Source: a candidate division WOR-3 bacterium (GTDB lineage Bacteria > Hydrothermota > Hydrothermia > LBFQ01 > DSFT01). From it: 35,810 nucleotides of DNA. A model generated the notes under the pieces. It did not search any database and had not been told where the DNA came from. It was given only the letters and a program-made list of their open reading frames with translations. The stretch is taken from positions 1 through 35,810 of the forward strand of contig CBFGJN010000004.1 of the NCBI GenBank assembly GCA_965649115.1, in the 5' to 3' direction. Positions 5,848 through 35,810 of the stretch are shown in pieces. A program made the translations under genes and the position numbers. Positions within the stretch are counted from its first letter, which is position 1; every line of letters begins with the position of its first letter.

Positions 5848-5899
5848 TTAAATGTTAAGTCTTTGAATATCAATAACTTGTTAAAGTTTTAAGGAAAGA

Positions 5900-6102
5900 A
5901 GCTTTGTCTAATAATTATTGCTAAATGTTTGATTATCAATAACTTACAAAAATTTTAAAGAAATTATTGATTTATCGGGGGGATTTTAGGGGGGCGGAGC
6001 CCCCACAGCCGAAAAATGGGCATTTTAAAGGCGTAGCCTTTATTTCAGGGCGGGTGGGCAAAATAAGAAAAATAAATACTTTCAGAATTCTTAGACACAG
6101 CA
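5900..6102 (+). mobile_element. MITE copy E1 (203 bp, orientation A)
   Basis: Ends AGCTTTGTCTAATAATT / AATTCTTAGACACAGCA; flanks aaggaaaga (5891-5899) and caggaaaga (6103-6111) form an 8/9 direct repeat; similar along its length to the other copies. Confidence 0.88.
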
Positions 6103-6139
6103 CAGGAAAGACATTTATAAACCTTAAAATTTTCAAACT

Positions 6140-7492
6140 TTGAGAATTTCTTATGTTTTAATTCCAGAAATTATTGAAGCAATAGAAAATAAAGACTTTA
6201 AGTCTTTAAAAGCATTAGTCCAAAATTTACACCCTTTTGATATTGCAGAAATTGTTGAAGATTTGGAACCTAATAAAGCGGTTCTTATATTAAGACTCTT
6301 AGATAGTGAAAAATGCTCTGATGTTTTAACTTATTTAGAAGGAGATAAATTGGAAGAGATTATTAAAAGCTTTTCTGATAAACAAATTTTGGAATTATTT
6401 GAAGAAATTGATGATGATGATAAAGTTGCTTTGTTTGAGGAATTACCACCATATCTTGTTCAAAGAATTATTTCAATTTTACCAAAAGAAGAGAAAGAAG
6501 TTGCTCTTAAATTGTTAAATTATCCTGAGAATTCTTGTGGTAGGATAATGAACACAGATTTTGTTTCAATAGAAGAAAATTTAAATATATTTCAAGCTAT
6601 TGAAATTATTAAGAAAAGTGATGTTTCAGATGAGGCATTAGTTAGTATATTTGTTATAACGAAGGAAGGAAAACTAAAAGGTTATGTTAAAATTACAAAA
6701 TTATTGAGAAGTGATTTTAACTTAACATTATCTGAAATTTGTGAAAGCATTGTTTCAGTTTCTGCCTATGATGACAAGGAAACTGCTGCAAAAATAATGA
6801 AAAACTACGATTTATTTGTCCTTCCAGTTGTAGATAAAGAAAGTAGAATGTTAGGCGTTATAACAATAGACGATATTGTTGATATTATTGAAGAAGAGGC
6901 AACAGAGGATATATATAGATTTGTAGGTTTAATTGACCCCGAAGCAAGATACTTTGATTTATCTTATAGAGAAAAAATTTTAAAAAGACTACCAGCAATT
7001 ATTTTAATGGTTATACTTGGAAATATCTCAGGTTTTGTTTTAAATAGTTATGAAAAAATTATTTCACATCTAACAATTTTAACATTCTTTTTACCAAACC
7101 TGGCTAACACTACAGGAATAATTGGCTCACAAGCTTCCGCTTTCACAATAAGAGCAATTGCAACAGGAGAAATAGAAAGAAATTTAAGGGCTTTTTTAAA
7201 ATTGTTTATTAAAGAATTTTCAACAATTTTAATCATTTCTATTATTATAGCATTGGGAATGTTTATAATAGCATTATTCAGAGGAAATTTTTTTATAAAG
7301 CTTGCAATAGTTGTAAGTTTAACTTCTATTGTTTCATCAATAATAGCTAATACTTTCGGTTTTTTAACACCACTAATTTTAAGAAAAATGAATATAGACC
7401 CTGCTGGAACCGATATTCCCTTAATTACAACAATTGGGGACGCTCTAACTTACATTACATATTTTACACTTGCCAAAATTATTTTATTTTAG
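6140..7492 (+). CDS. mgtE: Magnesium transporter MgtE
   Basis: LHPFDIAE N-domain, tandem CBS (GRIMNTDF; LPVVD..GVITIDD), TM region with IDPA and ITTIGD; TTG start. Confidence 0.95.
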   Translation: MRISYVLIPEIIEAIENKDFKSLKALVQNLHPFDIAEIVEDLEPNKAVLILRLLDSEKCSDVLTYLEGDKLEEIIKSFSDKQILELFEEIDDDDKVALFEELPPYLVQRIISILPKEEKEVALKLLNYPENSCGRIMNTDFVSIEENLNIFQAIEIIKKSDVSDEALVSIFVITKEGKLKGYVKITKLLRSDFNLTLSEICESIVSVSAYDDKETAAKIMKNYDLFVLPVVDKESRMLGVITIDDIVDIIEEEATEDIYRFVGLIDPEARYFDLSYREKILKRLPAIILMVILGNISGFVLNSYEKIISHLTILTFFLPNLANTTGIIGSQASAFTIRAIATGEIERNLRAFLKLFIKEFSTILIISIIIALGMFIIALFRGNFFIKLAIVVSLTSIVSSIIANTFGFLTPLILRKMNIDPAGTDIPLITTIGDALTYITYFTLAKIILF

Positions 7493-7493
7493 T

Positions 7494-7845
7494 GGGCAGT
7501 GGAAGGGCTAAGACTTAGGTTACTTTACTAACTTTTTCAATTCACTTGAAGCTTTGAAAGCTGGAACTTTTCTTGCTGGAATAGTTATTGTTTGACCAGT
7601 TTTAGGATTTTTACCTTTTCTTTGATTTCTTTTTCTAACTTCAAATGTTCCAAAACCAATTAATCTAACTCTTTGACCTTTTGCAAGAGCATCCTTTATT
7701 GCTGAAAATACAGCATCAACAGCAGCTTTTGCATCTTTCTTGGTTATCCCTGATCTTTTTGCTACCTCGTTTATAAGTTGTGCCTTGTTCATAGCTCACA
7801 CCTCCTTTTTAGGTTTTTTTCTTTTCCTTTTCCCTTCCACTGCCC
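7494..7845. repeat. Perfect 14-bp inverted repeat bracketing hup
   Basis: GGGCAGTGGAAGGG at 7494-7507 and its exact reverse complement CCCTTCCACTGCCC at 7832-7845. Confidence 0.9.
7520..7792 (-). CDS. hup: DNA-binding protein HU
   Basis: [37 protein letters not shown]; strong SD AAGGAGGTG upstream. Confidence 0.96.
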
Positions 7846-7862
7846 TGACATCCAGTGTGAAA

Positions 7863-7892
7863 ATTTTAAAGCATCAAATTTTAAAATGTCAA
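7863..7892 (-). promoter_or_regulatory. Sigma70-type promoter of hup
   Basis: Minus strand TTGACA (7892-7887), 18-nt spacer, TAAAAT (7868-7863). Confidence 0.75.
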
Positions 7893-8237
7893 GTCATTTT
7901 TAACTTTAAATATACCCCCTATAAATTTTTTTGATTTTAAAGATTTAAGTAATAAAATGACAAATTATTTTTAATTTATTTGTTCGTAACTATATTATAA
8001 TTACAATCAAAAGGATTAGCTTTACAATACCAAAATTTTCTATAAAATAAAAATACAAAAACTAACCATTATAAGAAAATAAAAAATTTTTTATAATAAA
8101 AAATTTAAAATAGTTTTAAAATAAAATTTTATATAATTTGTCAATTTAATTCATTACTAATTTCGTAAAAAATAGTTATTTAAATAGTCAAATTAATTGT
8201 CAATAACTCATTAAAATTTTCTGAAATTGTGGGCGGG

Positions 8238-8443
8238 TGCTTTGTCCAGTAATTATTGCCTAAGTTATTGGTAGTCAAAAACCTATTAAAATTTTAATAA
8301 ATTACTTGATTTATCAGGGGTTTTAATGGGGGGCGAAGCCCCCCGAAGCCGAAAAACGGGTATTTATAAGGCGAAGCCTTATTTTCAGGGTGGGTGGGGA
8401 AAATATAGAAATAATCATATTTTTAGAATTACTAGACAAAGCA
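8238..8443 (+). mobile_element. MITE copy E2 (206 bp, orientation A)
   Basis: TIRs TGCTTTGTCCAGTAATT / AATTACTAGACAAAGCA (16/17 match); hairpins GGGGGGC-GAA-GCCCCCC and TAAGGC-GAA-GCCTTA; no target duplication visible. Confidence 0.9.
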
Positions 8444-8477
8444 CGAAAGAAAAATTAAATGCCTTAAAATTTTCAAC

Positions 8478-10940
8478 TTGTTTGAAATTTTAGTTTCAAT
8501 AGCGAATTTTCAAAACTTCATAAATTATGAAATTTTTGCTGAATTTGATGATAGTTTGAACATAATAAAAGGTTATGAAACAATATATTATATTAACAAC
8601 TCAAAAGATACATTAAAATATATTGAATTAAACCTTTATGCTAATGCTTTTAGACCAAATTCAAAGTACAATCAAGATATTAAAAATAAACTAAAAGTTA
8701 AAAAAACAGGGATAGATAGAGCAAAATCAAAAGATTGGGGCTATATTATAATTGATAGTTGTTCAGAAAAATTTGATACAAATGATATGCTAATGCGTGT
8801 CTATAAAACCATTTTACCTAAAGAAACGACAAAAATTTTTATAAAATTTACACTTAAAATTCCAAAACTATTTGATAGATTAGGTAAATCGGAAGAAGAA
8901 TATGAAATTACACAATGGTATCCGAAGGTTGGTGTTTATGATGAAAGAGGATGGAGAACCTATGGTTATAGATATAATACGGAATTTTATGGAGATTACG
9001 CAAATTGGAAAGTTTCAATAAAAGTTAAGAAAGACTATATAGTAGGAGCAAGTGGTTATCTCATAGACTCAATAATAGATGATAATTTTAAAATTCTAAC
9101 TTATAAGCTTGAAAGAGCACATGATTTTGCTTTTGTAATGAGCAAAAGATACAAAGTTGAATTAGTAAATTATGATAGTATAAAAATTTACATCTTGCAC
9201 TATTCAAATGATAGTAATTTTATAAAGACAGCAAAATATCATTCAATAAATGCTTTAAAAATTTTTAGTAAAAAACTTTATCCTTATCCATATAAAACGC
9301 TTACAATTGTTGAAAGTCATTTAAGAGCAGGAGGTGGAATGGAATATCCAGCATTAGTTCTAATAACAAATCCAAAAGAATTTAAGAGTAGAAGATTTAG
9401 ATTAATAAAAAATTCAAAAAATTATTACTTAGCAATTGTTATAGCTCACGAAATTGGCCATCAGTGGTTTTATGGAATTATAGGAAATGATGAAGCTTAT
9501 GAAGCTTGGTTAGATGAAGGAATGAATAGTTACCTTGAAGATTATTACAATCATTTAGTTTTTAGTGATGAAAGTATTTACAATATATTTGGAATTTTTA
9601 AAAAAATTATGAAATTTTATTTAGGAAATTATGATTTTAGACTATTTAGTGATTATTTTGTTTATTTAGAGCCATACGATGAGCCAATGTTAGGAAAACC
9701 TGCTTGGGAAATGAAGAATTATTGGCAAGTTTATAATAGAGGAAAAAATTTAATGCTTGCCTTAGAAGATATTGTTGGAGATAGTTTGTTTGATGTAATT
9801 CTTAAAGAGTATTTTAAAAGGTTCGCTTTTAAACATCCAAGAAGTGAAGATTTTATAGAGTTAGCAGAGGAAATTTCAAATTTAGACTTAACAGCATTTA
9901 AAAATCAATGGTTATACGGTAAGGGACTACCAAATTATAGTGTTTATAAGACTATTAACAACAAATTCTTAATAAAAGGCACATATAAATATCCAATTTC
10001 TACAATTATTGACAATAATCTTTTAAAGCTAAAACCAGACACAATTGTTAATGGTAAAAAAATAATTATTGACCCATATAATAGAGTTCTTGAAAGTGAT
10101 GAATGGGATAATACTTATCCTAGAAGATTTGAAATTAAACCATTTTTCAATATCCCCAAAATGGGTTATTATCAAATAAGTTATATTCCATTTATTTTCT
10201 ATAATCCTTTTGATAATTATTTCTTTGGAATATATTTAAGAGGTTCTGAAAGTTATAAAAGACACTTTTTTAGTTATGGTGGAAATACGAAAGGTGATTT
10301 TTATTTAGGTTTTTGGGAAAATAACTTTTTATTTAATTTGAAGTTTGTAAAAAATATATTTAATTTAGATTTTGGTTTTAAAAATAAGTTCATTCAATTT
10401 CTTATTTTTAATGATTATATAAATGACCTTTCTTATCTTGATGGAAATTATTTTGAGAAAGCTAATGTTTGGGGAATTAAAATAAATGGATTTTATAAAA
10501 ATTTAAAAGTTTTTTCAAAAATTTCAAAAGATTTTCAAAAATTCAATATAAATTACAATTTCAAAATTTCAAGAATGCTAAATCTGAAATTATCTTATTA
10601 TCGTATATTTGGAAGTTATCCAATACACGAAAGAATTTACATTGATGGTGGATTTCTTTATCCAAGAGCATTTGAGATTCTACTGCCTTATAAAGGAAAT
10701 TGGTTTTATTCAAAATATCTTGTTTTTAATGATGGAATATACTCAAGAAGAGGCGAAAATATATTTTCAGATGAATTTGTTCTTTCGGAAATTAAATTTA
10801 GTCTTTTTGGTCCTTTTGGAATTTATTCAACATTAGGATGGACGGGTAAAACTTATATAGATTATGGGATTTATTTGAAGTTATATAAATTTGAAATTAA
10901 ATTTGTGAATTTTAATAGCTTTATAGTAAAATTAAATTGA
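8478..10940 (+). CDS. M1 family metallopeptidase with aromatic-rich C-terminal extension
   Basis: GGMEYP exopeptidase motif, HEIGH Zn motif, WLDEG third ligand; TTG start. Confidence 0.9.
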   Translation: MFEILVSIANFQNFINYEIFAEFDDSLNIIKGYETIYYINNSKDTLKYIELNLYANAFRPNSKYNQDIKNKLKVKKTGIDRAKSKDWGYIIIDSCSEKFDTNDMLMRVYKTILPKETTKIFIKFTLKIPKLFDRLGKSEEEYEITQWYPKVGVYDERGWRTYGYRYNTEFYGDYANWKVSIKVKKDYIVGASGYLIDSIIDDNFKILTYKLERAHDFAFVMSKRYKVELVNYDSIKIYILHYSNDSNFIKTAKYHSINALKIFSKKLYPYPYKTLTIVESHLRAGGGMEYPALVLITNPKEFKSRRFRLIKNSKNYYLAIVIAHEIGHQWFYGIIGNDEAYEAWLDEGMNSYLEDYYNHLVFSDESIYNIFGIFKKIMKFYLGNYDFRLFSDYFVYLEPYDEPMLGKPAWEMKNYWQVYNRGKNLMLALEDIVGDSLFDVILKEYFKRFAFKHPRSEDFIELAEEISNLDLTAFKNQWLYGKGLPNYSVYKTINNKFLIKGTYKYPISTIIDNNLLKLKPDTIVNGKKIIIDPYNRVLESDEWDNTYPRRFEIKPFFNIPKMGYYQISYIPFIFYNPFDNYFFGIYLRGSESYKRHFFSYGGNTKGDFYLGFWENNFLFNLKFVKNIFNLDFGFKNKFIQFLIFNDYINDLSYLDGNYFEKANVWGIKINGFYKNLKVFSKISKDFQKFNINYNFKISRMLNLKLSYYRIFGSYPIHERIYIDGGFLYPRAFEILLPYKGNWFYSKYLVFNDGIYSRRGENIFSDEFVLSEIKFSLFGPFGIYSTLGWTGKTYIDYGIYLKLYKFEIKFVNFNSFIVKLN

Positions 10941-10962
10941 TGTGTCCGAAATTTATGAATTT

Positions 10963-12360
10963 TTAAGGAAATTCTTCTTTTATGAGTTCTAATTCATTTT
11001 TTAATTTTTCAATAATTGGATTTTCTTCCTTAATTAGCATTTCTATCTCTTTATAGTTATAGTTTAGTAGATTTAAAGCTTTCTTAATTTCATTAATATA
11101 TTCTTTTGCAGATTGATAGGTGTAATCATTACTAAATATAAACTTGATTTTATTTTCCTCTTCAAGAATTTCAGATGATGATATTATACCAAGAGCAATT
11201 GGATTTTGCTTTTCAAAATAGTCTAAAAGTTTATCTTTGAGTGTTAAAGGCTTATCTTCTTTAACTTCATTTTCAGCTTTCTTATAGACGATATTATAGT
11301 TTTCTAATATATTCATTATTTGAATTGTTTTTGGCATAAGGCACATTCTTGAAATGAAAAATTCAAGCCATATTCTTGGTGTTATTGAATATCTAATTGA
11401 ACTTTCCATTTCAAGAGCTAAATTTAAAATTAACATTAAATCTTCTTTTTTATAGTCTTTTCTTTTATTTTCCAAAACTTCTTTAAATACATTAAATAAA
11501 AATTCATTAAATTCCTTAATAAAATCTAAAATAGAAACATTTTTTTGTAGAATGTCATTTAAAATTGAAAGAGCCTTATTAATATTTCTTGAAAAAATTT
11601 CCTTTAATAAGTTTTCAAGTTTTTCCCTTTCAATAGAGCCAAGAACATCTAAAACATCCTTATATGTAATTTTTCCATCACAAAACATTCTCATTTGATC
11701 CAATAGAACAAGAGCATCTCTTAATGAACCTTCTGACCTTCTTGCTATTTCTTCTATTGCTTTTTCTTCAATTTCAATATTTTCAATTTTTATAATTTCA
11801 TTCATTCTTTGAACAATTTCAAATGTTGATATAGGTTTAAAATCGTACCTTTGTAATCTTGAAATAACAGTTGGTGGAATTTTTTGGGGGTCAGTTGTAG
11901 CAAATATAAATACTACATGTTTTGGTGGTTCCTCAAGTGTTTTAAGAAGTGCGTTGAATGCTTCAATTGTAAGCATATGAACTTCATCAATTATATAGAC
12001 TTTATATCTACCTCTAACAGGTAGAAATTTTACATTTTCTCTAATTTGTCTTACTTCATCTATTCCTCTATTACTTGCTCCATCAATTTCTATAACATCT
12101 ATATGTCTTGAATTTTCAATATCTTTACAGGATGAACAAGTTCCGCAAGGATTTTCAATAATATCTTCATAACTTTCACAATTTAGGGCTTTTGCTAAAA
12201 TTCTTGCTGTTGTAGTTTTTCCAACACCTCTTGGACCTGAAAATAAATATGCTTGTGATATTCGTTTTTCTTTAAGAGATCTTCTTAAAGCCTTAACAAT
12301 ATGCTCCTGTCCTATGTGTTCATTAAAATTTTTTGGTCTGTACTTCACTGCTAAACTCAT
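10963..12360 (-). CDS. dnaX: DNA polymerase III subunit gamma/tau
   Basis: KYRP, GPRGVGKTT, Zn-binding Cys cluster, EIDGASNRG, IIDEVHML, FNALLKTLEEPP. Confidence 0.96.
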   Translation of the reverse strand: MSLAVKYRPKNFNEHIGQEHIVKALRRSLKEKRISQAYLFSGPRGVGKTTTARILAKALNCESYEDIIENPCGTCSSCKDIENSRHIDVIEIDGASNRGIDEVRQIRENVKFLPVRGRYKVYIIDEVHMLTIEAFNALLKTLEEPPKHVVFIFATTDPQKIPPTVISRLQRYDFKPISTFEIVQRMNEIIKIENIEIEEKAIEEIARRSEGSLRDALVLLDQMRMFCDGKITYKDVLDVLGSIEREKLENLLKEIFSRNINKALSILNDILQKNVSILDFIKEFNEFLFNVFKEVLENKRKDYKKEDLMLILNLALEMESSIRYSITPRIWLEFFISRMCLMPKTIQIMNILENYNIVYKKAENEVKEDKPLTLKDKLLDYFEKQNPIALGIISSSEILEEENKIKFIFSNDYTYQSAKEYINEIKKALNLLNYNYKEIEMLIKEENPIIEKLKNELELIKEEFP

Positions 12361-12395
12361 TTTTAAAATTTTAAAGTTGATAGATTAAAGCTTCG

Positions 12396-12599
12396 TACTG
12401 TGTCCAATAATTCTGAAAATATAATCATTTCTTATTTTGCCCACCCACCCTAAAAATAAGCCTTCGGCTTATAAATACCCATTTTTAGGCTATGGGGGGC
12501 GGAGCCCCCCTCAAAACCCCCCGTAAAATATATAATTTTCTTAAAATTTTTATAAGTTATTGACAATCAATAACTTAACAACAATTATTGGACAATGCA
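12396..12599 (-). mobile_element. MITE copy E3 (204 bp, orientation B)
   Basis: Ends TACTGTGTCCAATAATT / AATTATTGGACAATGCA; exact 9-bp target duplication AAAGCTTCG at 12387-12395 and 12600-12608. Confidence 0.92.
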
Positions 12600-12642
12600 A
12601 AAGCTTCGCCTTCCATAAAATCAATAGGTTTTAAGGTATTGT

Positions 12643-14424
12643 TTATTGAAAGTGTTCAGAATAATCTTCAAGAGGATATTTTTCTTTAAGCTCTCTTTCA
12701 AAGGAACTTATTAAATTTTGTAAGTTTTTTTGATATAATTGAGATTTAATAATTAATTTTTGACTTTCAAATTGACTTAGATCAGGCAGTTTTTCTTCTA
12801 ACTTTTTATAAACAATAAAACCTAAATCATGTTCAAAAACATCAATGTCATTTATATTCTTTTCAAAAACCCTACTAAAAAACTGGTCTTTCTGATTAAA
12901 TGGTAATCCTTGAATGTACATATCTGATGTTATTAAACCTGTTTCAAGGATAATAACTCTTGGGTCATTATTAAATAAGTTTCTTATTGAAATGGTGTCA
13001 TTATTTTTTAGATATTCTTTAACTTTTTCAATAGAGCTTTTCAAAATTTCTTTCTTTTTCTTATTTATAAGCCTTGCTTCAATTATAGCTTTAACTTCAT
13101 CGTAACTTTGATAACCTTCCTTTTTCTTATCAATTATTCCAAAAGCCACTAAAAAATTACCCATATCGTATATTCTTGAAAATTCACCAATTTTACCTTT
13201 TTCTAAGAATTTTCTTAATTCTTCATTTTCTCCAACAATAGGATAAAATTGTGAATTTATCGGAATATATATCGTTGTATCTATTCTAAAAGCTTTTAAA
13301 TTTTTTGTTTTAATAGCATTTTTAATGCTATCAATAATTAATTTCTTCGTTTCTATTGAAGGTTTTATCTTAATGAGAATTTGGCTAAAATCAATAGTGT
13401 CTTTTTTCTTCTTATCAATTTTATAAATATAATATCCAAGAGGTGTTAATATAGGACCAATTATTTCATTTTCATTTGCTTTTAGAAAGCTATCCCTTAT
13501 TTCAGGAAACAAATTATTAATTAAGAAATTCCTAACTTTCCCTGAATCATTCTTTGTTATTAAATCCTCTGAAAATAGAAATGCTAATTTATTAAAGTTT
13601 TCACCACTTTTAGCTTGTTCCTTTATACTTTCAATTTTATCTCTTGCTAAAATTGTATCATTATATGATGGAACTTTAAAGGCACGAATAACAATAAGTT
13701 TTACTCTTGAAGGTGCTTTAAATTCTTCTTTGTTTTTATTGTAGTAATTCTTTTTTTCTTCTTCTGAAATTTTAATAGTATCTGGAACTAATGATGCTGG
13801 AATGTTTGCATATAGAATTTTTACTTTTCTATTTCTATAAATAAACTCGAACTTTGCTTCTTCATCAGAAACATTTGACATAACTGCCAAATAGTATCTT
13901 ACTATATCTCTTGGAATTTCAGTTTTTAACCTTTCTTCATAAAATTTAAAAAACGGAATTGACCTTTGGTCTCTAAGAAGCGAAATATATTTACCATAAT
14001 CAAATTTACCATTTGTGTAAAAAATTGTATCATTTATAACTTCTGGTGGTGGGAATAAAACAATTGTTTTAACAATAGCATCTTTTGTGAGTGAAATTTT
14101 TAAATCTTCTAATAATAATCTCCATCTTATCCTATCAACTAATTCATCAAAAACTTTCTTTCTTAAATTTTCAATTTCATCGGCTGTTAGTTCTCTTCCT
14201 AATTTCCTTGTTGTATCATTTATTGCTTTTTCAAGTTCTAAATTAAATTCGTTATAAGTTAATTCATAGTTTCCAATTTTAGCAATAACTCCTCTTTCCC
14301 AAGGTTGATAGACTTTGTATCCTAATATATTAGCTCCAAGTTCAAGACCTATCCAACCTATGAATGCTAAAATAAGAATCCAAAGAACAAAAACTCCTAT
14401 TCTTCTCATTGTTTGCATTATCAT
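12643..14424 (-). CDS. PpiD/SurA-type periplasmic chaperone (parvulin-like domain)
   Basis: N-terminal membrane anchor (VLWILILAFIGWIG), SurA_N-like region, parvulin-like F..LA..FSED..T...SG and GPI.T..GY. Confidence 0.8.
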   Translation of the reverse strand: MIMQTMRRIGVFVLWILILAFIGWIGLELGANILGYKVYQPWERGVIAKIGNYELTYNEFNLELEKAINDTTRKLGRELTADEIENLRKKVFDELVDRIRWRLLLEDLKISLTKDAIVKTIVLFPPPEVINDTIFYTNGKFDYGKYISLLRDQRSIPFFKFYEERLKTEIPRDIVRYYLAVMSNVSDEEAKFEFIYRNRKVKILYANIPASLVPDTIKISEEEKKNYYNKNKEEFKAPSRVKLIVIRAFKVPSYNDTILARDKIESIKEQAKSGENFNKLAFLFSEDLITKNDSGKVRNFLINNLFPEIRDSFLKANENEIIGPILTPLGYYIYKIDKKKKDTIDFSQILIKIKPSIETKKLIIDSIKNAIKTKNLKAFRIDTTIYIPINSQFYPIVGENEELRKFLEKGKIGEFSRIYDMGNFLVAFGIIDKKKEGYQSYDEVKAIIEARLINKKKKEILKSSIEKVKEYLKNNDTISIRNLFNNDPRVIILETGLITSDMYIQGLPFNQKDQFFSRVFEKNINDIDVFEHDLGFIVYKKLEEKLPDLSQFESQKLIIKSQLYQKNLQNLISSFERELKEKYPLEDYSEHFQ

Positions 14425-14462
14425 AAGTTTGAAAAGTTTAAAGCAATAATTATTTGCCTTTA

Positions 14463-14666
14463 TGTTTTGTCTAAGAATTCTGAAATGTAGATTATTTCTA
14501 TTCTTTGCCCGCCCACCCTATATTTAAGCCTTCGGCTTACAAATTCCCATATTTAGGCTAAGGGGGGCGAAGCCCCCCTATAATCCCCCATAAAATCAAT
14601 AATTTCTTTAAAAATTTTATAAGTTATTGACTATCAATCACTTAACACCATTTACTAGACAAGGCA
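14463..14666 (-). mobile_element. MITE copy E4 (204 bp, orientation B)
   Basis: Ends TGTTTTGTCTAAGAATT / ATTTACTAGACAAGGCA; same internal modules as E3. Confidence 0.88.
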
Positions 14667-14675
14667 TTAGATAAT

Positions 14676-14797
14676 TGCTTTGTCTAGTAATTCTAAAATT
14701 ATTCATTTTTCTATATTTTTCCCATCCACCCTGAAATTGAGCCTTTGGCTCTACTTATTTGCCCCCCTTAATTCCCCTCGAAAAATCAATAATTTCA
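14676..14797 (-). mobile_element. Truncated MITE copy E5, tandem with E4
   Basis: Starts TGCTTTGTCTAGTAATTCT exactly 9 nt after E4; retains CCCATCCACCCTGAAA, GAGCC-TTT-GGCTC and the C-tracts; right boundary approximate. Confidence 0.8.
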
Positions 14798-14915
14798 GAT
14801 CTTCTTGTTTCATTAAAAATCCATAAACCGATCCATGAATATTAGAGCTTCAAGAAAATTGCTTTTTCCTTAGTTTGGACTTCCATAATTTTAAAGTGCT
14901 TTAAACTTTTAAAAA

Positions 14916-15398
14916 TTGAAAATTAAAACAATAGATATTCCATCGGTTGGTAAGAGATATGATATTACTACTGAAAGTAATTCAAAATTCGTTTTAATTG
15001 ATTATTTTTCAGGTTTTAAAGAAATTTACATTTTAAAGGATAATCAAACAATTGGATCAATTAAGTTGAATAATGATGAAGCAAATCAACTTGCTATTTT
15101 ACTTTCAAGAATGTTTTTAAAAGATTTTTTGGAAAAAAGAATAGATGTTATATTTCAAAGTTTAGCAATAGAAACAGTTAAAATTGAAGAAGATTTTAAA
15201 AGTATTAATAAAACTATTGAGGAAATAAAATTTAGAACATTTACGCAGACTTACATTATTGCTATTATAAGGAATGAAAAACCAATAGTAATGCCACAAC
15301 CATCAGAAAAAATTTTAGAAAATGATATTTTAGTTTTGCTTGGAAATATTGAAGATATTGAAAAAGCTAAAATTTATTTAAGAAATCTAAAACAATAA
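14916..15398 (+). CDS. TrkA-C (RCK_C) domain protein, KhtT-like cation:proton antiporter regulatory subunit
   Basis: KhtT-like N-terminus (I..VGKRY.I), C-terminal KTIEEIKFR...IIAIIRN...P...I.ENDILVLLG; TTG start. Confidence 0.8.
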   Translation: MKIKTIDIPSVGKRYDITTESNSKFVLIDYFSGFKEIYILKDNQTIGSIKLNNDEANQLAILLSRMFLKDFLEKRIDVIFQSLAIETVKIEEDFKSINKTIEEIKFRTFTQTYIIAIIRNEKPIVMPQPSEKILENDILVLLGNIEDIEKAKIYLRNLKQ

Positions 15399-15443
15399 TT
15401 TTAAGATGTCTTATCTAGCAATTCTAAAACCAAGCAATTATTT

Positions 15444-15968
15444 TTATTTTTTCTCAATAGGAGCTAATAGAATATAAGGAGTTTTTGGTTCTTTATCAGG
15501 AGGAACATACCAAGTCTTTGACAAAATAGAGTCTCCTTTCGGACCAAGTGATTTTATAAATCTATACATAGCTCTTAAATCCTTATCTGATATTTGATGA
15601 TAATTGTGCCAAGGCATGGGTGGTCTTTCCTTTCTTGTTCTAAACATATTTACCCATTCGTCTTCAGTTATTGTATTAACTAAAATTCTTAGATTTGAAG
15701 GATAAGTTGTTCCCCAAGGTCCTCTATATCCAATTTTATTACCAACTAACCATTCACTTTCAGGAAGTTTTCCTCCCGATATATCCCAACCAGGTGTATG
15801 ACAATCATTACAACCACCTATAAGGATAAGATATTTCCCTGCTTCCTCCGGCGTTTTAGATTTTACATATATTACGCTATCTTCAACAGTTTCTTTCTCT
15901 TTTTCTAATTTTTCTTTTTCACAAGCAATCAAAAAGTTCAAAAATAAACAGAGTATAGAAAGTCTCAT
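15444..15968 (-). CDS. Monoheme cytochrome c lipoprotein
   Basis: Lipobox FLIA-C, GGCNDCHTPG (CxxCH), GPWGT.YPSNL, PPMPW; start moved from the track's TTG 15989 to ATG 15968, which lies 7 nt after a TAAAAT box and opens the signal peptide. Confidence 0.85.
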   Translation of the reverse strand: MRLSILCLFLNFLIACEKEKLEKEKETVEDSVIYVKSKTPEEAGKYLILIGGCNDCHTPGWDISGGKLPESEWLVGNKIGYRGPWGTTYPSNLRILVNTITEDEWVNMFRTRKERPPMPWHNYHQISDKDLRAMYRFIKSLGPKGDSILSKTWYVPPDKEPKTPYILLAPIEKK

Positions 15969-15992
15969 AGGTAAAATTTTAAAGGACAAAAA

Positions 15993-16129
15993 TCTAGTAA
16001 TTCTAAAAATATAATTATTTCTATATTTAAGCCTTTGGCTTAAACTTCGCCCCCCTTAATCCCCCCATTATTTCAAGTATTTCAATGAATTTTTTATAAG
16101 TGATTGATTATCAATTATTAGACAAAGCA
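15993..16129 (-). mobile_element. Internally deleted MITE copy E6 (orientation B)
   Basis: Truncated end TCTAGTAATTCT, AAGCC-TTT-GGCTT hairpin, half hairpin CTTCGCCCCCC, intact end AATTATTAGACAAAGCA; a further degenerate end at ~16153-16175. Confidence 0.8.
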
Positions 16130-16195
16130 TCATTTTGTGCCTTCCTATTTTGTGCTTATCTAATAATTCTGAAAGTATCTGTGAAAATTCCCATT

Positions 16196-16867
16196 TTAAG
16201 GCTTTGCCTTGAACTTATAGCTTAAATTTTTATTAGGGTAAGGACAGAATTTATATATTGGGCAAATAGAACATTTTGGTTTGTAAGAGCAAATAGCTTG
16301 GCCGAATGCAACAAGATATAAATTAACATCTCTCCATAAATGTTTAGGAATAACTTTATATAATTCTTTTTCAGTTTGTAAGGTATTTTTAGTTTTTACC
16401 CAACCTAATCTATTTGATATTCTGTGAACATGAACATCAACAGCTATCAAATCTTTTTTATAAACATTTGACAAGAAAACATTAGCAACTTTTCTTCCAA
16501 CACCTGGAAGATTAATTATTTCTTCGTAGTTATTTGGAATTTTACCTTTATATTTTTCAAGAATGATTTTAGAAATTTCTTTGATGTATTTTACTTTTCT
16601 TTTATAGAATGATATTGGCTTTAATAGTTTTTCAAGTTCTTCATCAGTTAAAGCTAAAATTTTCTCGGGACTATCAGCAATTTCAAACAATTTTTTTGAG
16701 ATTTCAGAAGTAATACTATCTTTGGTTTGAGTTGATAAAACTGCCATTATTAAGCTCTTGAATGGTTCGTTATTATGAACTTTAATCATCTTTTTAACTG
16801 TTGCTTTATCTTCTGGCCAATTTTCAAATTCATTTTTCAATATATTCAGAATTTCTTCAACATTCAT
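16196..16867 (-). CDS. nth: Endonuclease III (HhH-GPD, 4Fe-4S)
   Basis: LSTQTKD, LPGVGRKVAN, IAVDVHVHRISNRLG, C-x6-C-x2-C-x5-C. Confidence 0.93.
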   Translation of the reverse strand: MNVEEILNILKNEFENWPEDKATVKKMIKVHNNEPFKSLIMAVLSTQTKDSITSEISKKLFEIADSPEKILALTDEELEKLLKPISFYKRKVKYIKEISKIILEKYKGKIPNNYEEIINLPGVGRKVANVFLSNVYKKDLIAVDVHVHRISNRLGWVKTKNTLQTEKELYKVIPKHLWRDVNLYLVAFGQAICSYKPKCSICPIYKFCPYPNKNLSYKFKAKP

Positions 16868-18330
16868 TATGGATAAATTTTTGGTTTTATATTTTCCAAT
16901 ATATTAATTTGATTATTGTTCTTCGTTGTTTTGGAGGTTAATAGAAATTCGGAGCTTAAAAATTCAACAACTTCATCTGGTAATTTTCTATCTATTGAGG
17001 AAAAATCTTTTATCAAGTTTTCAACAGTGTGGGTATAAGTTTGTCCTTCAATAAAATCTTTACTTTCTAAAATGTAAATTAAAAATTCTAAATTGTTAAT
17101 TGGTCCTAAATATATTGTTTCTTTAAGAGCTTGAATAAGCCTTTTTCTTGCTATTTCTCTATTTTCTCCATAGGAAATAAATTTTGCAATCATTGGGTCA
17201 TAAAATGGACTGATTTCATTACCTGAGATATATCCATAATCTATCCTTACATTAGGTATTATTGGATATTCAATATATTCAATTTTTCCTGTTTGAGGAA
17301 AGAAATTGTTTAATGGATCTTCTGCGTATAATCTTGCCTCAATTGAATGTCCTCTAAATTTAATATCTTCTTGATTTATGTTTAGTTTTTGACCTTCCGA
17401 GATTAAAATTTGAAGAGCTATTAGATCATAACCACTAATCATTTCACTTACAGGATGTTCAACCTGTATTCTTGAATTTACTTCAAGAAAATAAAATTCC
17501 CCATTTGAATATAAGAACTCAACCGTTCCTGCATTTGTGTAATTTGAATATTTTATAATTTTTTTAGCATAGTCATATAATTTTTTTCTTTCATCATCAT
17601 TCAAAGCCGGACTTAAAGCTTCTTCAATAATTTTTTGTTGTCTTCTTTGAATTGAACATTCTCTTTCTCCAAAAACCAAAATATTTCCATAATTATCAGC
17701 AATAATTTGAACTTCAATATGTCTTGCAGGATAAATATATTTTTCTACAATTATTCTATCATCAGAAAAATTGTTTAGAGCTTCTCTTTGGGCAGAAAGA
17801 ATAATTTCATCTAAATTTTCAAAGCTGGTTATTTTTTTCATTCCTTTACCACCACCACCTGCTGATGCTTTTAATAGAACAGGAAGACCAATTTTTTGAA
17901 TATAATTTTTAATTTCATTTAAATCTCTTAAATCAAGAGAACTTTCAGCAATAGGAATTCCTAATTCTTTTGCTAATTTCTTAGCATTGGCTTTATCTCC
18001 CAATAATTCTATTGCTTTATAGTTTGGCCCTATAAATTTAATTCCATTTTCCTCTACAATTTTTGCAAATTTGCTATTTTCAGCTAAAAAACCATATCCT
18101 GGGTGGATAGCATCAACGTTGAATTTTTTAGCAACATCAATAATTTTTTCTATATTTAGATATTCTAATGGTTCTTTTATATTTTCAGAATAATCTGCAT
18201 ATTTAACGAAAGGTAAATTTTTGTCAATATCAGAATATATTACAACACTTTCTATTCCAAAAACCTTAAGCGTTCTAATGATTCTTAAAGCAATTTCACC
18301 TCTATTCGCTACTAAAACTCTTTTAAACAC
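16867..18330 (-). CDS. accC: Biotin carboxylase subunit of an acyl-CoA carboxylase
   Basis: VLVANRGEIA, IHPGYGFLAEN, GGGGKGM, ERECSIQRR, FLEVNSRIQVEHP, FYDPMIAK; no fused BCCP domain, so substrate specificity is uncertain. Confidence 0.88.
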   Translation of the reverse strand: MFKRVLVANRGEIALRIIRTLKVFGIESVVIYSDIDKNLPFVKYADYSENIKEPLEYLNIEKIIDVAKKFNVDAIHPGYGFLAENSKFAKIVEENGIKFIGPNYKAIELLGDKANAKKLAKELGIPIAESSLDLRDLNEIKNYIQKIGLPVLLKASAGGGGKGMKKITSFENLDEIILSAQREALNNFSDDRIIVEKYIYPARHIEVQIIADNYGNILVFGERECSIQRRQQKIIEEALSPALNDDERKKLYDYAKKIIKYSNYTNAGTVEFLYSNGEFYFLEVNSRIQVEHPVSEMISGYDLIALQILISEGQKLNINQEDIKFRGHSIEARLYAEDPLNNFFPQTGKIEYIEYPIIPNVRIDYGYISGNEISPFYDPMIAKFISYGENREIARKRLIQALKETIYLGPINNLEFLIYILESKDFIEGQTYTHTVENLIKDFSSIDRKLPDEVVEFLSSEFLLTSKTTKNNNQINILENIKPKIYP

Positions 18331-18737
18331 TACTCAATATTTGCTCTTGGTCTTGGTGCTTGACGAGTTATTGTTTCTTGTTTTTGTTGAACTTTTTGAG
18401 CTTGCTTTAATGTTTCAAGTTTATCAATTTTAACAAGTTTATATATTGTCTCTTCAATTAATAAGTAATAATCATCACCATATCTAAAAACAGGATAATC
18501 ACCTACCCACTCACCGTCTCTTTTTAGTTTTATTATGTCAGTTTCTTCAACCTTGAAACCTCTTTGCCTTGCCAAAATTTCAGTAGCAATAATTGAAATT
18601 ATATCAGGATTTTGACTTACATAATCAAGAAGTTCAGATGGAATTTTTATATCACTTATACCTAATTCACCTGCTGCTAGTAAAGCGAGTTCTTTTTTTG
18701 AAAGTTTTGATAATTCGTCATATAATTTATCCCGCAT
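18330..18737 (-). CDS. Hypothetical protein (135 aa), first gene of the accC-nth unit
   Basis: Clean ORF coupled to accC; TAAAAT box 7 nt upstream of the ATG; no family recognised. Confidence 0.7.
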   Translation of the reverse strand: MRDKLYDELSKLSKKELALLAAGELGISDIKIPSELLDYVSQNPDIISIIATEILARQRGFKVEETDIIKLKRDGEWVGDYPVFRYGDDYYLLIEETIYKLVKIDKLETLKQAQKVQQKQETITRQAPRPRANIE

Positions 18738-18772
18738 AATGAAAATTTTAAAGGATAAAAATTTTATTTTTG

Positions 18773-18952
18773 TGCTGTGTCCAAAAATTCTGGAATTATT
18801 TATTTTTCAAAAGCCTTCGGCTTTAAAGTACCCATTTTTTGCTTTGGGGGGCAGAGCCCCCCTAATAATCCCCCCATAAAATCTATAATTTCCTCAAAGC
18901 TTTTATAAATTATTGATTATCAATCGCTTAACAATAATTATTGGACAAAGCA
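18773..18952 (-). mobile_element. MITE copy E7 (180 bp, orientation B)
   Basis: Ends TGCTGTGTCCAAAAATT / AATTATTGGACAAAGCA; left flank TTATTTTTG (18764-18772). Confidence 0.9.
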
Positions 18953-18961
18953 AAATTTTTA

Positions 18962-19153
18962 TGCTGTGTCTAGTAATTCTGAAATGTAGATTATTTCTTA
19001 TTTTGCCCGCCCTCCCTGAAAATAAGGCGGAGCCTTATAAACGCCCATTTTTCGGCAGAGGGGGGGCTTTGCCCCCATAAAATCAATAGTTTTATTGAAA
19101 TTTTCGTAAGTCATTGATAATCAAGCATTTAGCAATAATTACTGGACAAAGCA
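18962..19153 (-). mobile_element. MITE copy E8 (192 bp, orientation B), tandem with E7
   Basis: Ends TGCTGTGTCTAGTAATT / AATTACTGGACAAAGCA; begins 9 nt after E7; right flank TTATTTTTG (19154-19162) duplicates the left flank of E7. Confidence 0.9.
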
Positions 19154-19162
19154 TTATTTTTG

Positions 19163-19240
19163 TGCATTTTTTGCCTTAATTTCAGCGTTTTTCCCACCCG
19201 CCTTGGAATAAAGGCTGAGACTTTATAATGCCCTCTTTAT
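19163..19240 (-). repeat. Degenerate older MITE remnant
   Basis: TTCCCACCCGCCTTGGAATAAAGGCTGAGACTTTATAATGCCC aligns by eye with E8 TTGCCCGCCCTCCCTGAAAATAAGGCGGAGCCTTATAAACGCCC; boundaries approximate. Confidence 0.6.
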
Positions 19241-19304
19241 TAAGTTTTTCTTATGCTTTAAAATTTCAAGCTCAAAAGAATTCCTTATATTAGAATTTTT
19301 CTTT

Positions 19305-19321
19305 TTATGCTTTATAATTTT
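19305..19321 (+). promoter_or_regulatory. Putative promoter of the tRNA-Trp/rpmG/secE/nusG operon
   Basis: TATGCTTTATAATTTT (TATAAT 19313-19318); a second similar box TATGCTTTAAAATTT has its hexamer at 19259-19264. Confidence 0.6.
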
Positions 19322-19334
19322 CGCACTTGCTGAT

Positions 19335-19408
<74 letters not shown>

Positions 19409-35228: not shown

Positions 35229-35738
35229 ATGATATTTCTTATATCCTATATAAGTGAGAAAGCATATATTTCTGAATATGTTGGTGAATGGAAATATGAG
35301 TACTCAAAAGATCTTGGCAATTTCAAAAAGGTTCAAACACCAATTCATAAACAAAATCCTATTTTTGAAAAGAAAGTAAATCCTTATAGAATGCCATATA
35401 GAAAACCTTCTAATAATTTTCAAATAATGGATAGTTTATCAAATGAAGTTAGGATTACCTATTCAGGAACAGTTAGAGATGTTAAAGCTGCTTATTCAAA
35501 GAGAATTGGTAAAGTTGTTTATGTTTGGAGTGAGAATGATCCATCGTGTGGTGGTTCTTATTGTCTTCATGTTTGGAGGGAAGGTTATTCTTACATTTAT
35601 GTTTTTTCATGGTCTGGAACTTCTGACCCTGATATAGCAATAGGTGATACAAACAGATGGGCATTAATAAGCTTTAATGATGCTGCTGATGATAGTCTTT
35701 ATTGGATTTATTTTGCTTTGTCCAATAATTATTGTTAA
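35229..35738 (+). CDS. Hypothetical, probably exported protein whose 3' end is supplied by a MITE (possibly truncated)
   Basis: TAAAAT box (35199-35204) and SD AAGGAGGT upstream; the final residues ALSNNYC-stop are read from the MITE end. Confidence 0.65.
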   Translation: MIFLISYISEKAYISEYVGEWKYEYSKDLGNFKKVQTPIHKQNPIFEKKVNPYRMPYRKPSNNFQIMDSLSNEVRITYSGTVRDVKAAYSKRIGKVVYVWSENDPSCGGSYCLHVWREGYSYIYVFSWSGTSDPDIAIGDTNRWALISFNDAADDSLYWIYFALSNNYC

Positions 35739-35810
35739 GCGATTGATAATCAATAATTTATAAAATTTTTAAGGAAATTGTTGATTTATTGGGGGGATTA
35801 TTAGGGGGGC
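35714..35810 (+). mobile_element. MITE copy E9 (orientation A, runs off the window)
   Basis: TGCTTTGTCCAATAATTATTGTTAAGCGATTGATAATCAATAATTTATAAAA is identical to the reverse complement of the right end of E7. Confidence 0.9.

Follow-up and report, generated by a model that had tools for sequence, protein, structure and literature searches.

To our knowledge, promoter-targeted transposition in bacteria is known from a single superfamily, the Mutator-like elements of the TnGBS, ISLre2 and ISKra4 groups, and its mechanism still has the status of a proposal. The account of these elements in the available passages of PMC3942029 finds a canonical -35 box 13-17 bp downstream of their insertion sites, proposes that differences between the two ends set the orientation, notes that the promoter stays functional, and cites the integration of yeast Ty3 at RNA polymerase III start sites as an analogy. 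Correia elements of Neisseria and other bacterial MITEs are short and non-coding, end in inverted repeats and duplicate their target; they are plentiful between genes, in many cases immediately upstream of one, and may hold promoter-like motifs. As to their choice of site, the review passages describe an intergenic preference and no fixed promoter distance or orientation (PMC10969869). In IS903B, the inverted repeat begins GGCTTTGTTGAATAAAT and insertion is marked by a 9-bp repeat (PMC10569121), while IS903 prefers the target motif WTTYA-9 bp-TRAAW, which directly flanks the duplication (PMC2577343). No strict orientation rule for IS903 is reported in the passages available from these two sources.

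Here we analyse a stretch of 35,810 nucleotides (the window) from a draft genome of 1.85 Mb and 27.6% GC in the Ca. Hydrothermia group, together with the copies of its repeated element in the rest of that genome. The source is an uncultured hot-spring bacterium. We consider it likely that MITEs with IS903-like ends are moved in trans and that their integration is aimed via the host -10 element. A literature search returned no description of the promoter-homing element family.

A MITE family that makes up 5% of the genome

The element is non-coding, about 205 bp long and bounded by inverted ends of 17 bp, and its target is duplicated over 9 bp. Its profile matches the genome 732 times, which amounts to 5.3% of the sequence, and about 233 of these matches are full length; in 225 full copies the 17-bp end consensus TGCTKTGTCYARTAAWT is present at both ends. 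Perfect 9/9 duplications flank 95 of the 225 and 8/9 duplications a further 17, compared with 1 and 1 among shuffled pairs, and the signal is confined to register 9. The description as a MITE, which the earlier note had based on inverted ends and duplications in a few copies, is therefore borne out across the genome: the family is a MITE by its short, non-coding, multi-copy form, its inverted ends and its duplication of fixed length. In these properties and in its intergenic abundance it resembles the Correia-type elements as described in PMC10969869, and no Rfam family matched the copies in the window. Near its far end the element carries an internal promoter-like motif that points outward; this motif is preceded by a G-rich hairpin and may be a poor target. 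These genomes assemble poorly because 106 of the 198 contig ends of the draft assembly sit at a copy of the element.

Element copies upstream of promoters

The host -10 consensus is CTTTAAAATTTT, a highly conserved motif of 11-12 nt, and these promoters show no conserved -35, in line with the previous suggestion that they rely on the -10 region. Most strict copies of the motif (582/813) lie just upstream of an ORF start, 482 of the 582 with a leader of 6-11 nt, and 29 of the 45 tRNA genes have it 4-16 nt ahead of the mature 5' end; several of the latter are occupied by an element. From these sequence statistics we take the motif to be the promoter -10 element, mostly ahead of leaderless genes.

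The window contains 11 profile matches, and five of its nine scored 3' ends face a promoter at 21-22 nt. E1, a full copy (5900..6102, + strand), is separated by a 22-nt gap (6103-6124) from the mgtE -10 box TAAAAT (6125-6130), ahead of a TTG start at 6140. Its flanking 9-mers (5891-5899 and 6103-6111) match at 8/9 positions, and it appears to have inserted into an older copy, of which a fragment corresponding to profile positions 22-67 remains at 5852..5897 (+). Two further full copies have no matching duplication in their flanks: E2 (8238..8443, +) lies 21 nt from the TAAAAT (8465-8470) of an 820-aa gene starting at 8478, and E4 (14463..14667, -) lies 22 nt (14441-14462) from the TAAACT (14435-14440, -) of a gene starting at 14424. 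Between them, the full copy E3 (12396..12601, -) stands 22 nt (12374-12395) from the -10 box of dnaX (12368-12373, -; ATG at 12360) with the duplication AAAGCTTCG intact at 9/9 on both sides (12387-12395 and 12602-12610). The 5'-truncated E5 (14677..14798, -) follows E4 head-to-tail across a 9-nt spacer (14668-14676), and E6 (15993..16130, -), which is internally deleted and truncated at its 3' end, is oriented like the others relative to the promoter at 15976-15981 (-). E7 (18773..18952, -) is the promoter-proximal copy of a pair, 22 nt (18751-18772) from the -10 box at 18745-18750 (-) of a gene starting at 18737, and adjoins the distal copy E8 (18962..19153, -) through a 9-nt spacer (18953-18961). 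This pair as a whole is flanked by TTATTTTTG at 9/9 (18764-18772 and 19154-19162), whereas the inner spacer differs, AAATTTTTA. An internal fragment of another copy (profile positions 122-177) lies at 19180..19235 (-), and a full copy on the + strand, beginning at 35713, runs past the window end (35713..35810 in the window) to contig position 35925, and nothing resembling a promoter motif lies 12-23 nt beyond its 3' end.

On re-reading the sequence, the five gaps that the earlier note had counted by hand (E1, E2, E3, E4 and E7) were all correct, as were the duplications it gave for E3, E7+E8 and E1. Its figure of five out of five promoter-adjacent copies is nevertheless a selected count, because the copy at 35713 has no promoter at its end.

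One end at a fixed distance from the -10 box

Across the genome, the -10 motif lies exactly 21-22 nt from the promoter-side (3') end in 176 of 478 intact flanks, whereas the opposite end, read outward with the identical motif definition, has it at that distance in 4 of 324 and shows no distance peak. The proposal that the same end always faces the promoter at 21-22 nt thus holds genome-wide as a peak at one end only. A fixed orientation with one end beside the promoter is a feature that the family shares with TnGBS, ISLre2 and ISKra4 elements (PMC3942029). Of 485 intact 3' ends, 183 have the motif at 20-23 nt and 64 at 12-16 nt (33 at exactly 14); another element comes next in 105 (at exactly 9 nt in 93 of them), 7 are at contig ends and 126 fall into none of these classes. 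Within this last group, 36 adjoin a neighbouring copy that is degenerate and 15 show a looser -10 box at one of these distances, which leaves 75, out of the 478 scored ends, where neither register holds anything like a promoter motif. The 12-16 nt class is a second, smaller insertion register that had previously been missed, and the share of perfect duplications in the 14-nt class equals that in the main class. Counting TAAAAT as -12 to -7 puts the duplicated 9 bp at about -34 to -26, so that they cover the -35 position, as had been proposed. A second species, G002, follows the same spacing rule: in a count by hand of 24 non-stacked ends, at loci picked by similarity to E1, the motif is 21-23 nt away from 16 and 14 nt away from 4.

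Neighbouring copies point the same way, head-to-tail, in 227 cases, against 36 inverted arrangements, and the head-to-tail stacks, which the earlier note overlooked, have a 9-nt spacing. In 34 full-length pairs, an intact duplication is found only at the promoter-side copy in nine and only at the distal copy in three, and 12 pairs have one and the same 9-mer at all three flanking positions (strictly so in 11; in the twelfth, one comparison falls just under the 8/9 cut-off). Some two-copy units seem to have moved as one, which had also gone unnoticed.

The promoter precedes the insertion

Going from the element towards the promoter, the duplication comes first, and the 13 nt that then separate it from the -10 box are not conserved. 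At mgtE, each of the four genomes compared from the same genus (G001-G004) keeps the motif and lacks the element, while the single neighbouring-genus genome has no such motif there. Conversely, three sites that are filled in relatives are empty here, on contigs C8, C19 and C20, and still have their -10 box. The earlier note had raised the possibility that the -10 box travels with the element; at these four loci the box is retained at the empty site, and the promoter is a pre-existing target and not cargo. If the element were instead a mobile promoter whose true boundary lay beyond the -10 box, this could account for dnaX, which has E3 and a promoter here and neither an intergenic region nor a promoter in the closest relative, G002, and the outward-pointing motif inside the element would be in keeping with it. 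However, the duplications flank the inverted ends and leave the promoter outside, the intervening 13 nt are unconserved, and the idea fails at all four empty sites, so we give it almost no credence.

Occupancy of the motif differs by context. Gene promoters with the strict consensus are occupied in 218 of 582 cases, over a third, as compared with 0 of 109 motif copies in coding DNA, 0 of 32 within elements and 13 of the 86 remaining intergenic copies, which precede no ORF start (mostly RNA genes and short ORFs). The low occupancy outside promoters is confounded by selection and local sequence, and the zero in coding DNA in particular because selection removes insertions there. This last figure would also be expected if insertion were essentially random and only copies placed just upstream of the core promoter and harmlessly oriented survived, in a genome that leaves little neutral space because about 88% of it is coding (ORF proxy). 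Yet survival cannot yield a precision of 1-2 nt, a single orientation or reuse of the same 9 bp, as in the 12 of 34 pairs above; the other element end has no distance peak, and sites further upstream would be equally harmless but are not used. We therefore regard random insertion with selection as very improbable, and favour integration that is aimed at the -10 element.

How the -10 element is sensed

The -10 element might be sensed in two ways. A transposase might read the motif CTTTAAAATTTT directly, without RNA polymerase, through a DNA-binding part that docks on it and sets the active sites a fixed distance upstream, as TnsD of Tn7 does at its attachment site. The length and conservation of the landmark, a distance exact to 1-2 nt and the targeting of tRNA, RNA and protein-gene promoters alike would all agree with this, as would an integration site placed between about -35 and -18, a region that bound polymerase would cover. 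Against it, none of the 32 strict motif copies within elements is occupied (chance 3e-7 at the promoter rate of 0.375), and only 13 of the 86 intergenic copies without an ORF start are. These two counts may instead reflect a poor, G-rich target or unannotated genes. On balance, direct reading strikes us as a serious but somewhat doubtful possibility, and we lean slightly towards contact with promoter-bound RNA polymerase.

A possible source of the transposase

No transposase was found in the window, as the earlier note had stated, nor in the whole draft genome or its genus. In the host genome, the Pfam models PF01609, PF13586, PF13359, PF00872 and PF00665, the NCBIfam models for ISLre2 and ISKra4 and a search for the IS256 type all gave no match; the four other genomes of the genus had none to PF01609, PF00665 or ISKra4. 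PF01609, absent from all five genus genomes, matched 9 of 14 control genomes, whereas the ISLre2 model matched 0 of the 14, which makes that search uninformative. Longer elements with the same ends enclosing a DDE transposase, which had been put forward as a possible source, were not found in the host genome: no ORF there is bounded by element ends, and no repeated segment of at least 450 bp resembles an insertion sequence. All 10 metagenome matches to the end sequence are MITEs, and the transposases found in the same order are of the IS982 and IS1380 types and lack these ends.

The element end consensus, TGCTTTGTCCAATAAAT, is identical to the published IS903B end at 14 of 17 positions (PMC10569121). 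Together with the 9-bp duplication, likewise common to IS903 and IS903B, this is suggestive of the IS903 group of the IS5 family; as no transposase was found, the assignment is based on the length of the duplication and on 17 nt at the element ends. Unlike IS903 and IS903B, the element is non-coding, and the target preference of IS903 is a weak palindrome beside the duplication (PMC2577343), which does not account for a promoter landmark 13 nt away. The earlier note had compared the element to ISLre2 and TnGBS; the likeness is one of behaviour and probably not of kinship, with ends resembling IS903B and no ISKra4 match. Mobilisation by a Mutator-like transposase of the TnGBS, ISLre2 or ISKra4 kind is accordingly unlikely in our view: no ISLre2, ISKra4 or IS256-type match was obtained (the ISLre2 model matching none of the controls), and where those elements insert 13-17 bp upstream of a -35 box (PMC3942029), here the end adjoins the -35 position itself at promoters lacking a -35 box, with the -10 box 21-22 nt (or about 14 nt) away. 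Judged by the ends, the transposase would also belong to another family, and what has spread, to 5% of the genome, is a non-autonomous derivative.

A model for promoter-guided insertion

We propose that a transposase encoded outside the assembled genome, probably of the IS903 group as the ends indicate, moves the MITEs in trans, and that the integration machinery takes the -10 element as its landmark. A 9-bp staggered cut would fall about 13 nt ahead of the -10 box, or about 5 nt ahead of it in the minority register, so that one particular element end would come to lie 21-22 nt (or about 14 nt) from the box; small differences between the two ends plausibly determine which. As the duplicated 9 bp would remain on the promoter side, with the DNA from about -34 downstream intact, the gene would keep its promoter. 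Repeated insertion at the same 9 bp would then build the head-to-tail stacks, in which the newest copy would mostly be the promoter-adjacent one. The integrase of Ty3, a eukaryotic retrotransposon, is tethered by TFIIIB/TFIIIC; although Ty3 and the MITE are unrelated in sequence and chemistry, the likeness would lie in transcription machinery guiding a mobile element to a precise promoter position.

In its fullest form, which we put forward tentatively and hold to be rather less probable than the model in outline, an IS903-type (IS5-family) transposase, not related to the Mutator-like enzymes of TnGBS and ISLre2, has independently evolved guidance by the transcription initiation complex, reading promoter-bound RNA polymerase at -10-only promoters in two registers (about -35/-26 and -27/-18), with over a third of consensus promoters tolerating, or even having recruited, the MITE. 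The family shows that 5% of a compact genome can come to consist of a mobile element with no genes broken, and it marks promoters in a phylum for which we found no transcription data in the literature. The case would add a seemingly unrelated family to promoter-targeted transposition, a new geometry in which the element end occupies the -35 position of promoters without a -35 box, and hundreds of natural insertions in one small genome from which the rule can be defined to the nucleotide. If the model holds in its fullest form, it would offer a second system, and a tractable one, in which to ask how promoters are sensed by a transposase.

Spacing between the element and the -10 motif

The ~200-bp repeat family that the earlier note had described in the window is real: a profile built from 119 full copies gave 11 matches within the window and, at E <= 0.001, 732 across the draft genome (1.85 Mb, 99 contigs, 27.6% GC), whose contig C4 opens with the window. 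About 233 of the 732 are full length, and together the matches cover 5.3% of the genome. The target duplications are as first described, with AAAGCTTCG around copy E3, TTATTTTTG outside the pair E7+E8 and an 8/9 match around E1, and all five hand-counted gaps from the element end to the -10 hexamer are correct, at 22 nt for E1 (6103-6124), 21 nt for E2 and 22 nt for E3 (12374-12395), E4 (14441-14462) and E7 (18751-18772). The accompanying count of five promoter-adjacent copies out of five was selected, however, as a further copy at 35713, which runs past the window end, has no promoter at its end. The window also holds a CRISPR array at 91-325, with at least four 30-nt repeats (Rfam CRISPR-DR2) and extending to the window start, and, adjoining it at 336-2792 on the minus strand, an 818-aa ORF.

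Plotted genome-wide, as had been proposed, the distance from element to motif peaks at 21-22 nt at the 3', promoter-side end only. Among 478 intact 3' ends with flanking sequence, 132 have their first -10-like motif at 22 nt and 44 have it at 21 nt, whereas the identical motif definition read outward from the other end gives 3/324 and 1/324 at these distances and no peak anywhere; the motif definitions were set after inspection of the data, with this other end as the internal control. When all 485 intact 3' ends are considered, the motif lies at 20-23 nt in 183 and at 12-16 nt in 64, while 105 run directly into the 5' end of a next copy (93 at exactly 9 nt) and 7 are at contig ends. The remaining 126 comprise 36 that abut a degenerate next copy, 15 whose -10 box at those distances is of a looser form and 75 with none. 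The sister species (G002) follows the same spacing rule: at 24 non-stacked ends counted by hand, in loci selected by similarity to E1 independently of context, the motif lies at 21-23 nt in 16, at 14 nt in 4 and elsewhere or nowhere in 4.

The motif as a promoter element

The strict motif occurs 813 times in the genome, and 582 of these occurrences lie just upstream of a start codon opening at least 60 codons, our ORF proxy for gene starts. In 482 of the 582, only 6-11 nt separate hexamer and start codon (for example in the window at 6125-6142, 12360-12373 and 18735-18750), so that most genes seem, from sequence, to be leaderless. The motif also lies within 80 nt upstream of 33 of the 45 tRNA genes, in 29 cases 4-16 nt before the mature 5' end, and tRNA genes begin 8-9 or 14-15 nt downstream of it, which argues for a transcription signal and not a translation signal. 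On these grounds we take the motif to be the promoter -10 element. Upstream of the window tRNA gene at 19335-19408 there are two tandem promoter-like motifs, near 19250 and 19305 (region 19243-19408).

Promoters free of the element show no conservation upstream of -17 and hence no -35 box, and a scan for classical -35/-10 pairs returned 86 sites against 80.8 in shuffled sequence, which is no excess. With TAAAAT numbered -12 to -7, the last base of the element is -35 and the duplicated 9 bp span -34 to -26, which bears out the earlier placement of the target duplication at the -35 position. Because the duplicate copy remains on the promoter side, all DNA from -34 downstream is native.

Occupancy differs between classes of motif. 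A copy stands at 20-23 nt from 165 of the 582 gene promoters and at 12-16 nt from 53, giving 37.5% in total, compared with 0/109 motif copies within coding DNA, 0/32 strict motifs inside the elements themselves (chance 3e-7 at the promoter rate) and 13/86 other intergenic copies, mostly promoters of tRNAs, other RNAs or short ORFs. This pattern tips the balance towards working promoters, and away from the bare motif, as what is recognised, but it is not decisive, because selection purges insertions in genes and because the internal motif is preceded by a G-rich hairpin that may make it a poor target. The internal motif, CCTTAAAATTTTT, is promoter-like and points outward on the opposite strand of each copy, at element positions ~50-62 (for example window 5940-5960); it adjoins a TTGATTATCAA palindrome near the element's far end, and might drive outward transcription.

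Evidence for transposition with the promoter as target

Identical 9-mers flank 95 of the 225 full copies, and a further 17 have flanking 9-mers that match at 8/9 positions, compared with 1 and 1 in shuffled pairings, and duplication registers of 7, 8, 10 and 11 gave no signal among these copies. The duplication is situated between element and promoter, and the 13 nt that separate it from the -10 box are not conserved. At four loci an orthologous empty site still has its -10 box. The mgtE promoter, CTTTAAAATTTTCAAACT-TTG, is kept in element-free form in 4/4 same-genus genomes compared, and the single neighbouring-genus genome compared has no such motif at mgtE. Conversely, three promoters occupied by one or two copies in relatives have no copy in this genome and retain the -10 box (contigs C8, C19 and C20); in these comparisons the relatives are different strains, 88-93% identical. 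The dnaX locus is less tidy: in the sister species (locus L007) the dnaX start directly adjoins the stop codon of the PpiD-like gene before it and lacks a promoter, and in the present genome the interval between the two genes holds E3, a promoter and part of an older copy (window 12361-12642). In four hot-spring or coal runs, contigs break at the copies and no clean empty-site allele was readable, because the joints are short-sided and repeat-derived. The position of the duplication and the empty sites retaining a -10 box dispose of the possibility, raised in the earlier note, that the box travels with the element; the promoter is what this transposon targets.

A second register

Roughly one in four of the copies next to a promoter lies ~14 nt from the -10 box and not 22 nt. 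If these copies used a different -10 box, their leaders should differ, but leader lengths are identical in the two classes, which rules this out. Deletion by microhomology was rejected as the full origin of the register: the TG that it predicts precedes the motif in only 17/53 of the 14-nt class, a modest enrichment over 57/359 empty promoters, and perfect duplications are equally frequent (14/31 in the 14-nt class and 43/93 in the main class). Taken together, the equal share of perfect duplications, the equal leaders and the modest TG enrichment show that this is a genuine alternative position for docking, closer to the -10 box by 8 bp.

Stacked and gene-associated copies

Neighbouring copies mostly run head-to-tail (227 cases, against 36 inverted), and clusters comprise up to five profile matches. 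Among 34 full-length pairs with 9-nt spacing, the three 9-mers agree in 12 (strictly in 11; in the twelfth a single comparison falls just under the 8/9 cut-off), a sign that the same 9 bp were hit repeatedly. In 9 pairs the promoter-side copy alone has an intact duplication and in 3 the distal copy alone, so that the promoter-adjacent copy is usually the newest. In three pairs, including E7-E8 in the window, the outer 9-mers match and the inner spacer differs, which suggests that a two-copy unit moved as one; in seven, all three 9-mers are different. Nearest-neighbour identity among copies ranges from 68% to 100%, with 21/187 at 98% or above, and this spread argues for an old family that is probably still active.

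Some copies are associated with genes. At C11:31359-32784, element 3' and 5' ends bound a 1,426-bp unit, a possible gene-carrying composite, which has a perfect 9-bp duplication (TATATCTTT) on its flanks and a promoter 22 nt away; inside it are a gene of 246 aa and a small one that is ribbon-helix-helix-like. Separately, a six-copy family of DUF5618/HEPN-like genes of ~155 aa (C7:48766-49119, C13:7271-7753, C22:10890-11360, C50:3247-3726, C61:5316-5786 and C71:3393-3821, all in the genome of the window) has final codons and a stop homologous to MITE positions ~20-45, and several of these genes continue into a MITE body whose 3' end is normal and lies 22 nt from the promoter that follows.

Search for a transposase and origin of the element

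Longer elements with the same ends enclosing a transposase, which the earlier note had suggested looking for, did not emerge; only MITEs were found. Seven transposase family models (Pfam PF01609, PF13586, PF13359, PF00872 and the integrase-type PF00665; NCBIfam ISLre2 and ISKra4) had no match in this genome, although the ISLre2 blank says little because that model matched no control genome, and PF01609, the integrase-type model and ISKra4 had no match in four other genomes of the genus. End pairs 0.5-4 kb apart with matching 9-mers were only stacks and the one gene-carrying composite candidate, half-element matches 0.5-3 kb apart yielded no candidate, and looser end pairs enclosing an ORF were rejected as autonomous elements since the enclosed ORFs are host genes. 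A YREK-motif scan gave 19 matches with, by eye, no transposase-like ORF, and self-comparison of the genome gave no IS-like repeat. Multi-copy ORFs were likewise rejected, being by eye endonuclease-like and other paralogs, along with the Pfam-tested DUF5618/HEPN-like family; an 881-bp 'element' around a methyltransferase gene proved to be merely a paralog with copies on either side. A tblastn search with ORFs of the order's 12 PF01609-match loci returned nothing but host genes, most of them neighbours of the transposases.

Beyond this genome, a degenerate 19-mer of the element end gave mostly chance matches and the sister species in public collections, and an exact 21-mer found 10 metagenome loci, all MITEs. 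With a 17-mer and one mismatch allowed, the family was found among 201 genomes of the phylum only in the present genome (776 matches), the sister species (272) and one further genome of the genus, G003 (3); among the single matches elsewhere, the 18 loci examined, from nine genomes with at least two matches each, had no paired ends and no profile match. As many as 106 of 198 contig ends lie at a copy (within 250 nt), making the repeat a main cause of the fragmented assembly, and a multi-copy insertion sequence would probably drop out of a bin assembled in this way. Sequences that flank copies in the sister species frequently fall on separate contigs of the present assembly.

The published IS903B ends read GGCTTTGTTGAATAAAT... 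and the direct repeat of IS903B is 9 bp long (PMC10569121); the element consensus end, TGCTTTGTCCAATAAAT, is identical to the IS903B end in 14/17 positions. Thin as the evidence is, this end identity and the shared 9-bp repeat make a source in the IS903 group of the IS5 family likely. The target motif reported for IS903 directly flanks the duplication (PMC2577343) and fails to explain a landmark 13 nt away. G013, which belongs to the same order, has six contig ends (loci L125-L130) that break off ~125 nt into an identical repeated element, whose first 17 nt are those of the MITE end and which then opens a reading frame; its body was not recovered and is absent from the bin. The bin also has an IS1380-family transposase on two contigs of 1,133 bp each, and no link between these and the repeated element was found.

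Relation to known promoter-targeting elements

Our literature searches returned no description of this element, nor of promoter homing by IS5-family elements, and the available portions of a 2024 review of prokaryotic MITEs describe intergenic location and no promoter-distance rule (PMC10969869). TnGBS, ISLre2 and the ISKra4 group are established cases of elements that insert in a set orientation upstream of promoters, at 13-17 bp upstream of the -35 box; asymmetry of their ends has been proposed to set the orientation, and contact with the polymerase initiation complex has been proposed as the mechanism (PMC3942029). The earlier comparison with ISLre2 and TnGBS thus stands for the behaviour, which is the same in kind, but does not extend to the position of insertion, the type of promoter or, as far as the ends suggest, the transposase family, in all of which the present element differs.
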